Part shown: positions 48,910 through 50,242 of the stretch, piece after piece | How positions within the stretch are numbered: the stretch's first letter is position 1 | Layout: each line of letters starts with the position of its first letter | Assembly (NCBI GenBank): GCA_048938005.1 | Contig: JBHLMQ010000003.1 | Span: forward strand, 109,014-173,013 | Direction: 5' to 3' | Length of the DNA stretch: 64,000 nucleotides | Source of the DNA: Promethearchaeota archaeon | GTDB taxonomy: Archaea > Asgardarchaeota > Lokiarchaeia > Sigyniarchaeales > SOKP01 | The notes under the pieces: generated by a model | What the model was told of the DNA's origin: nothing | What the model saw: the letters and a program-made list of their open reading frames with translations, nothing else | The model's database searches: none | Made by a program: the position numbers and the translations under genes

Positions 48910-50242
48910 TTAAAAAACAATATCTTCTAATACAATAGTTTCCTTTCTATCTGGTCCAATTGAAACCATGGCAATTTCTGTTTTAAGTATTTCTCCAATT
49001 GCGTGAATATATATTTTCATTGTCTCTGGAAGAGCATCATATCCTTTTCCTGCTATATCTAACCATTCTTCCCTAGTCTTTTCTTCCCAACCTTTAAAAC
49101 TTCTATAAATTGGTGTACAATTTTCAATTATTTCTGATTGGATTGGCCAACTTTCAAGTTTATTACCTTCTAATTTATAACCAATACAAATATTTATTGG
49201 ATTAACTCCTTGAAGTGCGTCTAAAAGTGTAATTATAACTTTATCAACACCATTAATCATTATTCCATATTGAATATTGAAAAGGTCTAACCATCCAACT
49301 CTTCGTGGTCTTCCAGTTACGGTACCATATTCGTTACCTTGTTCTCTAATTTTATCAGCAGTCTCATTAAATAATTCTGTTGGGAATTTTCCTTCACCAA
49401 CTCGAGAAGTATACGCCTTAACAATTCCAATTATTTTATCAATTTTTTTAGGTGGAATTCCAGTACCAGCAGAAATTCCTAATGCGTTCGCATTAGATGA
49501 TGTACCATAAGGGTACATACCAAAATCAAGCGATAATAGATTTCCTTGAGCTGCTTCAAAAAGAACTTTTTTTCCAGAATCTATAGCTCTATTCAAATAG
49601 TAGGCTGTATCAATTACATAAGGTTTAAGTTGCTTCCCATACTCTTTATACTCTTGATATATTAGTTCAAAAGACTCATCCCAATCAGAATCATATGCTT
49701 TTATAACTTTCTTTTTGATTTCAAAGAGGTTTTCCAATTTTGGTTTAAGAAATTCGGGATGTATTAAATCAAATACTCGGATGCCCCAGCGTGCAGCTTT
49801 ATCAGAATATGTGGGACCAATACCTCTTTTGGTTGTACCGGCACTATACTTCCCCTTTGATTCCTCTTCTAGCCCATCTAATACCCGATGGAAGGGAAAG
49901 ATTACATGTGCGGTTGAACTTAATTTTAGATTTATCTTTTTATCAAGTTTTTTCAAATGATCTATTTCTTCAATTAAGACTTTAGGATCAACTACACAAC
50001 CATTAGCTATAACTCCTTCTTTTTCTAAGGGAGCTCCAGATGGTATAAGTTTAAATTTATATTTAATTCCATTAGCATTTATTGTATGACCCGCATTATT
50101 TCCACCATTATATCTTACGACAATATCAGCCTTCTGTGCTAAAAAATCAACGAATTTGCCTTTGCCTTCGTATAGGGTTAATTTGCGACGTGCAAAACTA
50201 AGCTCCCCACGAAAGGCCAATAACGGCAATAGTATTACTCAT
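48910..50242 (-). CDS. purA: Adenylosuccinate synthetase, split by a 31-nt intron (exons 50242-50203 and 50171-48910; 433 aa spliced)
   Basis: Spliced N-terminus [67 protein letters not shown]. Confidence 0.93.
50172..50202 (-). other. Putative BHB-type mRNA intron (31 nt) in purA
   Basis: GGGG AG^C TTAGTTTTGC-ACGTC-GCAAATTAA CCCT AT^A, with exon stem CTTTCG/CGAAGG. It contains an in-frame TAG and shifts the frame; removal rebuilds the GAC (Asp) codon. Confidence 0.88.

Follow-up and report, generated by a model that had tools for sequence, protein, structure and literature searches.

The closest described counterparts of the element reported here are the intron in the pre-mRNA of cbf5 in Crenarchaeota (Watanabe 2002; Yokobori 2009, PMC2738675) and the bulge-helix-bulge (BHB) intron of HVO_1309 in Haloferax volcanii. 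According to the report on the latter, whose own case lies in a 5′ untranslated region (5′ UTR), cbf5 was the only other archaeal mRNA case reported (PMC7714728), and a 2023 review counts two archaeal genes or more and states that others have yet to be found (PMC10485636). For Asgard genomes, an (αβ)2 form of the tRNA splicing endonuclease EndA with an L1 loop has been described (PMC5829648), and Asgard tRNA introns are presented as having been gained many times in a preprint (10.64898/2026.10.13.758758) whose main text contains none of the words “mRNA”, “purA” and “adenylosuccinate”; in the full-text literature, supplements and subscription journals lying outside this scope, we found neither purA nor any protein-coding gene of Asgard archaea reported to contain a BHB intron. 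Here, we describe a 31-nt insert in purA, which encodes adenylosuccinate synthetase, in a Promethearchaeota archaeon (assembly GCA_048938005.1); the gene is located in a 64,000-nt stretch of contig JBHLMQ010000003.1 (positions 109,014 to 173,013), referred to below as the window. Comparison with related genomes suggests that this insert (50202-50172) is an archaeal BHB intron in the pre-mRNA of the genome's only purA, a gene that would be functional and dependent on splicing; we give this reading a probability of roughly 0.88.

The split purA gene and its predicted fold

The source genome (G000) comprises 3.72 Mb in 101 contigs, with 95% completeness, 7% estimated contamination, and 30% G+C. 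Its purA is located on the minus strand, where the frame opened by ATG 50242 runs for 13 codons plus one base before it meets the 31-nt insert, which sits inside the Asp codon of the GDEGKGK loop. The parts of the gene and of its predicted fold are as follows.

50203..50242, minus strand: purA exon 1, 40 nt (ATG, 12 codons, and the G of the split Asp codon)
50172..50202, minus strand: predicted purA intron of relaxed BHB type, 31 nt, with an in-frame TAG
48910..50171, minus strand: purA exon 2, 1262 nt including the stop (AC of the Asp codon, then EGKGK..., 419 codons and stop)
50205..50208, minus strand: central helix H, 5′ strand GGGG (Trp-Gly codons), pairing with 50174-50177
50174..50177, minus strand: central helix H, 3′ strand CCCU, near the intron 3′ end, pairing with 50205-50208
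50204-50202, minus strand: 5′ bulge A-G-C, 3 nt, canonical
50173-50171, minus strand: 3′ site A-U-A, facing the single unpaired U 50209
50178..50201, minus strand: intron hairpin (helix h′ plus loop), all nine pairs with changes on both sides
50210..50216, minus strand: exon-exon helix h, exon 1 strand CCUUUCG, pairing with 50165-50170 (6 bp)

Without splicing, the exon 1 frame continues with GCT TAG right after its 13 codons, so that the TAG stands one codon past the junction. Excision of 50202-50172 joins G to AC, which restores the Asp codon (WG-D-EGKGK) and gives a frame of 40 + 1262 = 1302 nt; the coordinates, sequence, and arithmetic put forward in an earlier sequence-only reading of the window were all reproduced. 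The product proposed by the open reading frame (ORF) caller (48910..50229, TTG start, 439 aa) begins with 20 residues that match nothing, and its match to PF00709 starts at profile position 10, which corresponds to residue 21; the sequence-only reading was thus right that this N-terminus is non-homologous and lacks the Asp. Exon 2 covers PF00709 positions 10-416 (E = 9e-153), and exon 1 with the restored Asp supplies the N-terminal part with the GDEGKGK loop. The protein of an intronless congener (P0001, residues 3-430) aligns with residues 2-427 of the E. coli enzyme (1ade_A), and these alignment ranges make the split Asp the counterpart of E. coli Asp13, a residue called essential and 99% conserved in PMC12884076; the sequence-only reading had named this Asp as catalytic. 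A search for a second purA copy returned a single PF00709 match in the 95%-complete genome.

The minimum free energy (MFE) and centroid structures computed with ViennaRNA agree on a 3-nt 5′ bulge, an intron hairpin, and a 2-nt 3′ bulge. The 4-bp central helix of BHB introns is present (GGGG/CCCU), with the bulges on the 3′ side of its strands as in archaeal BHB motifs, and in G000 it is flanked by both helices of the motif, h and h′. Cutting after the second base of each bulge yields exactly the junction required by the protein, the cut positions themselves being taken from the junction of intronless relatives. The claim that the boundaries needed by the protein coincide with BHB cut sites (helix GGGG/CCCU, bulges AGC and ATA) is in line with these predicted positions; the motif is relaxed on the 3′ side, where the site lies opposite one U and is folded as a 2-nt bulge. 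The MFE was -25.1 kcal/mol, as compared to -18.5 ± 2.7 kcal/mol for shuffled sequences (z = -2.48), and 7 of 200 shuffles folded equally well.

No Rfam family was matched and no tRNA gene was found in the window. A group I or group II self-splicing intron was rejected, as these need a core of hundreds of nucleotides and the purA inserts described below have 30-32 nt, without an Rfam match in the window. BLAST searches of the G000 genome with the purA intron and with the intron of a second gene (LOR, described below) returned no further copies, indicating that neither is a repeated element at the sequence level.

Same-site inserts, covariation, and selection

Among the 54 genomes of the same genus (g1), five presented no PF00709 match at all and one had lost the purA N-terminus at a contig end. 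In the 48 genomes with a readable N-terminus, 18 carry an insert between the G and the AC or AT of the Asp codon (30 nt in one genome, 31 nt in 15, and 32 nt in two) and 30 present an uninterrupted WGDEGKGK. A search of 400 genomes across the phylum, with the protein of an intronless congener as query, identified 12 further N-terminally interrupted purA genes among the matches listed (with 146 weaker ones besides), all from the same family; 11 of these showed internal stops, and in the remaining genome (G225) the match started at residue 28. The insert is at the identical site in nine genomes of genus g22 (30 nt), two of g15 (30 nt), and one of g21 (31 nt). Three g22 control genomes have no insert, the site is uninterrupted in all eight genomes inspected from other families of the order, and, among the matches listed, those from beyond the family begin at query residues 2-6 without any internal stop. 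In total, an insert of 30-32 nt occupies the exact site in 30 species-level genomes, which belong to four genera of a single Lokiarchaeial family, and 30 congeners are uninterrupted, which answers the question of intron presence across relatives raised by the sequence-only reading. All but one of the 30 inserts put a stop in the exon 1 frame, and the in-frame 30-nt inserts carry stop codons; three lengths, in all three phases, at one junction are consistent with a stretch that is excised instead of translated. Seven state changes of the insert are required on the purA protein tree, as compared to approximately 15 with shuffled labels, and at least three of the seven are forced by well-supported branches; the distribution is clustered but patchy, like that of cbf5. 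As this is a single gene tree, gain and loss of the insert are indistinguishable on it.

The central helix and the hairpin stay paired across these genomes. In the 18 g1 sequences, 84.8% of cells were paired, as compared to 32-50% when partners were slid by 1-3 columns, and two-sided changes were found in 9 of 19 pairs, a number reached by none of 500 shuffles. A covariance model built from the g1 alignment was used to produce a second alignment (A2) with 30 intron-bearing and 6 intronless rows, in which pairing was 82.9% (35-52% after sliding); here the central helix was 98.2% paired, while the hairpin was 87.7% paired with two-sided changes in each of its nine pairs. Although no sequence similarity to the g1 hairpins is obvious in those of g15 and g21, the latter form perfect 8-10-bp stems. 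Within the exons, one pair of the exon-exon helix shows covariation at third codon positions that are synonymous (Leu CUU/CUC with Glu GAA/GAG; UA in eight and CG in four sequences), and all 30 intron-bearing genes use GGA for the Gly that precedes the junction, as compared to GGA in 7, GGT in 12, GGC in 7, and GGG in 5 of 31 intronless copies; synonymous covariation and the fixed GGA are exon-level signs of RNA constraint. The comparative data, and not the folding energy, show that the purA insert stands above chance.

Selection on the interrupted gene shows no relaxation. Median pairwise ratios of nonsynonymous to synonymous change (dN/dS, NG86) for exon 2 were 0.094 between insert-bearing genes (103 of 136 pairs usable), 0.087 between genes without insert (351 of 435), and 0.089 in mixed pairs (376 of 510), values that are rough because dS is near saturation (medians 1.1-1.5). 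Terminal branches of the protein tree are alike in length for intron-bearing and intronless genes. Exon 1 starts with ATG and ends with GLSWG in all 30 interrupted genes, written in nine nucleotide versions of those five codons, which indicates that the exon 1 frame is read; the 419-codon exon 2 is full in all 30, contig permitting. Both exons of purA, for which the sequence-only reading had proposed a test of selection, thus appear to be maintained. In several relatives (e.g., L003), the exon 2 frame presents a stop and no start codon upstream of EGKGK, so that a protein made from exon 2 only is not a general solution.

Machinery for such splicing appears to be encoded in G000. We identified two EndA paralogues (PF01974), encoded by ORF 1453-2049 of locus L049 (minus strand) and ORF 1210-1827 of locus L050 (plus strand). 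The 198-aa paralogue is closest to chain B of 3P1Z (3p1z_B), the A. pernix α subunit, and keeps the K-P-R of the Crenarchaea-specific loop, in alignment with K44 and R46 there; this loop was shown to confer cleavage of relaxed motifs (PMC3241643). In the 205-aa paralogue, Ser occupies the place of the His in the “KEHS” of M. jannaschii EndA; this paralogue is probably the structural β subunit. RtcB is also present (E = 1.4e-170). As judged from these proteins, G000 would possess both an endonuclease fit for relaxed motifs and an RNA ligase. ARAGORN identified 30 tRNAs in G000, 21 of them with introns, a set that is probably incomplete owing to non-canonical or multiple introns.

The five congeners without purA (G003, G006, G051, G065, and G068) present no adenylosuccinate synthetase even at the level of the Pfam family (best E 0.15-0.2). 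Of these, G003 is 97% complete and G006 consists of one contig. Some congeners seem to have lost purA. Another genome, G049, has two full-length intronless purA genes, on contigs C26 and C55, that fall on different tree branches, which suggests a mixed bin or a duplication. One further element was found in front of the gene.

50314..50328, minus strand: A/T-rich box AAAAATTTTTTAAAC, upstream of purA exon 1

The same string is found upstream of exon 1 in many congeners, intron-bearing and intronless alike, and the box is possibly a BRE/TATA promoter element.

Other interrupted protein genes

At least four protein genes of G000 are interrupted by inserts of 29-31 nt: purA, a zinc-ribbon and LURP-one-related (LOR) gene, a small zinc-ribbon gene, and a NifU-domain gene, the last outside the window. 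For each of the latter three, the predicted junction equals the uninterrupted sequence of congeners. An xUGG-A context surrounds the insertion site in three of the four.

37190..37219, minus strand: predicted intron of the zinc-ribbon and LOR gene, 30 nt, with an in-frame TAG
37426-37220, minus strand: exon 1 of the zinc-ribbon and LOR gene
37189-36680, minus strand: exon 2 of the LOR gene, matching the LOR profile only from position 32
54369..54397, plus strand: predicted intron of the small zinc-ribbon gene (54351-54610), 29 nt, after the sixth codon
54351-54368, plus strand: exon 1 of the zinc-ribbon gene, MARCPE; exon 2 starts at 54398
G000 C29:234-263: predicted intron of the NifU-domain gene (174-431, locus L260), 30 nt, between the Asp and Gly codons of D-G-G-D

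The LOR intron was detected by a combined BHB and ORF scan and was recovered, like the purA intron, by a motif-free alignment of the window. Among 30 congener loci inspected, 18 are uninterrupted and read ...KEKYWDWGSG... / YYILKEKYWDWGSG, which is the exact predicted junction; seven carry a 30-nt insert at the G000 site, with differing hairpins, and five carry an insert at another site approximately 9 nt upstream, so that one gene presents two intron positions within the genus. At the end of the LOR gene (36681-36706, minus strand), G000 has a C-terminal extension of 14-26 nt relative to G009, G016, G007, and G005, an ordinary end difference and no intron.

The zinc-ribbon intron was detected by motif-free alignment of the window against the syntenic DNA of five congeners. 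The placement of its boundary is ambiguous by up to 2 nt, within GAAA, and its central helix has 3 bp. The gene is uninterrupted in G005, G016, and G009 (MARCPECGGFMKYH...), while at this site G022 has an insert of 29 nt whose hairpin differs. The ORF caller starts this gene at ATG 54410, losing the first Cys pair; no Pfam family was matched by its protein.

The NifU insert forms a 10-bp hairpin with a clean 4-bp central helix, and G022 is uninterrupted at this site; exon 2 covers positions 17-67 of the 67 positions of the Pfam NifU profile. This case came from the first pass of a two-genome comparison, in which 1,265,000 bases of G022 were aligned with G000, yielding 1.17 Mb in aligned columns and 216 gaps between 10 and 200 nt long, 215 of them analysed; a filter on contig-end distance excluded it from the second pass. 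The comparison also identified a 30-nt BHB-like insert with an in-frame stop in G022 (G022:C1:335854-335883) that is absent from G000 (C34, near 20999), which reads ...IAIPMHNWGKDL... at this position. Polymorphic coding-sequence introns between the two genomes thus amount to roughly three per 1.17 Mb, a method to which shared introns are invisible. Three frame-breaking gaps of 20-37 nt (G022:272019, C37:10512, and C55:16154) were judged alignment noise in variable regions, and the 30 nt inserted at C32:12980 form an in-frame indel of a protein, with an open frame, rather than an intron. Further polymorphic BHB inserts of 26-31 nt were found in G022 (879835-879865, 184346-184374, and 419668-419697) and in G000 (C97:90867-90892 and C34:1325-1355); these are probably tRNA introns at non-canonical positions, their tRNA-arm-like flanks having been judged by eye.

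A genome-wide BHB and ORF scan that demanded a strict central helix of 4 bp returned 50,044 raw candidates. Ranked by helix score, the LOR intron was first and the purA intron third; the zinc-ribbon intron, with its 3-bp central helix, was missed. The other high scorers inspected were rejected by eye because their “exon 1” peptides were junk, and one of them (C85) lies inside an amidase-like motif, recognized by eye, that is uninterrupted in another frame. Junk among the top candidates indicates that the scan is not specific at 30% G+C.

The purA intron belongs to a class of approximately 30-nt introns, other members of which reside in G000 tRNA genes and in a minimum of three further protein genes. 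We tentatively propose, at somewhat less than even odds, that EndA-type introns of 29-32 nt may be a regular, fast-turnover part of the protein genes of this Lokiarchaeial family, with insertions and precise losses that separate sister species and sometimes affect two sites of one gene only 9 nt from each other, with a pool shared with the abundant tRNA introns, and with at least 10 such introns per genome. If this holds, the closest prokaryotic relatives of eukaryotes would routinely splice mRNAs with protein-only machinery, and cells without a nucleus would need to keep ribosomes off unspliced messages.

Alternatives, proposed mechanism, and known systems

The purA intron could be real and also regulatory, with splicing efficiency gating AMP synthesis, as the sequence-only reading had suggested. 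An intron inside a catalytic codon would leave the unspliced product useless, and for the cbf5 intron a negative regulatory role has been proposed by its describers (PMC2738675). The purA data give this suggestion no support, however, and we consider it unlikely: the hairpin sequence varies freely between genera, which makes a ligand-binding fold improbable; the window has no Rfam match; the insert is patchy among close relatives, with seven changes on the best tree; five congeners have no purA; and inserts of the same size and shape are found in unrelated genes and tRNA-like sequences. Most likely, the purA intron is a tolerated passenger rather than a regulator.

Translational recoding would leave the RNA uncut, the ribosome either bypassing the 31 nt in the style of T4 gene 60 or shifting frame. 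Bypass in gene 60 needs matching take-off and landing codons. The purA insert resembles gene 60 in being a short untranslated gap in a coding sequence, with a stop closely after the take-off region and a hairpin at the gap start, but the matching codons are missing: take-off would occur at GGA, and no GGA or GGN is found where decoding must resume (AC/GAA GGC). A single frameshift would put 10-11 residues in place of the Asp and fails for the in-frame 30-nt inserts that contain stops. What the genomes conserve is the geometry of a BHB whose cut sites fall on the junction that is required, and the other three interrupted genes share this geometry without a take-off and landing pair. Recoding is therefore very improbable.

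A slightly poorer candidate is a pseudogene, in which a small hairpin element killed purA and the remaining frame is decaying. The insert does break the purA frame, and the five congeners without purA indicate that its loss is tolerated in the genus. Decay is difficult to reconcile with an exon 2 dN/dS of approximately 0.09, as in intronless genes, over dS > 1, with an ATG...GLSWG exon 1 in 30 of 30 interrupted genes and a full exon 2 where the contig allows, with persistence of the insert across four genera, and with constraint on the insert helices and the adjoining exon bases.

There is still less to be said for a purA that works without exon 1, from the TTG start at 50229, as a 439-residue protein with a novel N-terminus. 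This ORF is open in G000, but its product would lack the Asp and the first β strand, with Pfam coverage from position 10; other intron-bearing species have a stop upstream and no start codon in that frame, and the conservation of exon 1 in another frame would be left unexplained. An assembly or sequencing artefact, for which one could invoke a draft genome of 101 contigs with 7% estimated contamination, is next to impossible given same-site inserts of diverged sequence in 30 genomes that all represent different species.

A spliced BHB intron in a purA that is otherwise intact, functional, and dependent on splicing, as the sequence-only reading had proposed, is the explanation to which same-site inserts, covariation, selection, the single gene copy, and the presence of EndA and RtcB point. 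Under this explanation, the purA transcript would fold so that the GGGG at the end of exon 1 pairs with CCCU and the intron interior forms a hairpin, so that the 5′ junction lies in a 3-nt bulge and the 3′ junction in a bulge or loop of relaxed form. An (αβ)2 EndA would then cut after the second base of each bulge (BHB introns usually end up as circles) and RtcB would join the exons, restoring the GAC Asp codon and yielding an adenylosuccinate synthetase of 433 residues.

Several points weigh against this explanation. The folding energy is only mildly unusual (z about -2.5), and the 3′ site departs from the canonical bulge of 3 nt, facing one U and being predicted to fold with a bulge of 2 nt. 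The exon-exon helix h, present in G000, is not conserved (68% of cells paired in A2) and is lost in genomes that write Ser as AGU. The intron-bearing genes are related to one another, so that the shuffle controls overstate independence, and A2 was fitted to a model structure that was itself derived from these same sequences. The dN/dS values are rough, as noted, and the absence of purA from five congeners means that its essentiality cannot be assumed in the genus. The putative α and β assignment of the EndA paralogues comes from sequence alignment alone, and excision and ligation of the purA intron by EndA and RtcB are deduced from comparison.

The comparative record is strong enough for direct design of primers and substrates. 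With it, it becomes testable, in the lineage nearest eukaryotes, how coding-sequence introns are gained and precisely lost, how translation of unspliced mRNA is avoided in cells that lack a nucleus, and how relaxed a BHB can be outside a tRNA body. Gene callers mis-annotate such genes: purA receives a false N-terminus, and the LOR, NifU, and zinc-ribbon proteins are split or truncated. Metabolic reconstructions of Asgard archaea can therefore wrongly score them as broken.

Among known systems, splicing of HAC1/XBP1 is eukaryotic and stress-regulated, with Ire1 cutting paired stem-loops. It is similar to the process proposed here in that a protein endonuclease and RtcB-type ligation remove a very short intron, changing the frame without a spliceosome; it differs in the nuclease, Ire1 instead of EndA, and in the motif.

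Non-canonical tRNA introns of Asgard archaea are another such system; the same machinery would be expected to act on them, namely an (αβ)2 EndA with an L1 loop as described in PMC5829648. The polymorphic 26-31 nt inserts with tRNA-like flanks (assigned by eye) match the coding inserts in size and shape. Unlike these, the purA intron resides in an mRNA, where no tRNA body aids recognition. The BHB intron of HVO_1309 shares with purA that an mRNA serves as substrate of the tRNA splicing endonuclease (PMC7714728; PMC10485636); however, this intron lies in a 5′ UTR and not in a reading frame, the host is a euryarchaeon, and the H. volcanii endonuclease is described as α2 (PMC10485636).

The cbf5 intron is likewise a relative in kind. 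According to its description (PMC2738675), it is a BHB intron in a protein-coding frame, has a relaxed cleavage motif in a host with hetero-oligomeric EndA, and presents a patchy distribution that was read as gain and secondary loss. The locus described here differs in its Asgard (Promethearchaeota) host and in its gene, purA, as well as in that several unrelated genes of one genome are interrupted, with inserts that all have 29-32 nt; in addition, splicing of cbf5 was shown experimentally, whereas that of purA is inferred. The purA intron thus joins a known but very small group of mRNA BHB introns, to which it adds a central metabolic gene in Asgard archaea and a genome with at least four interrupted protein genes, in a lineage for which such a case matters.

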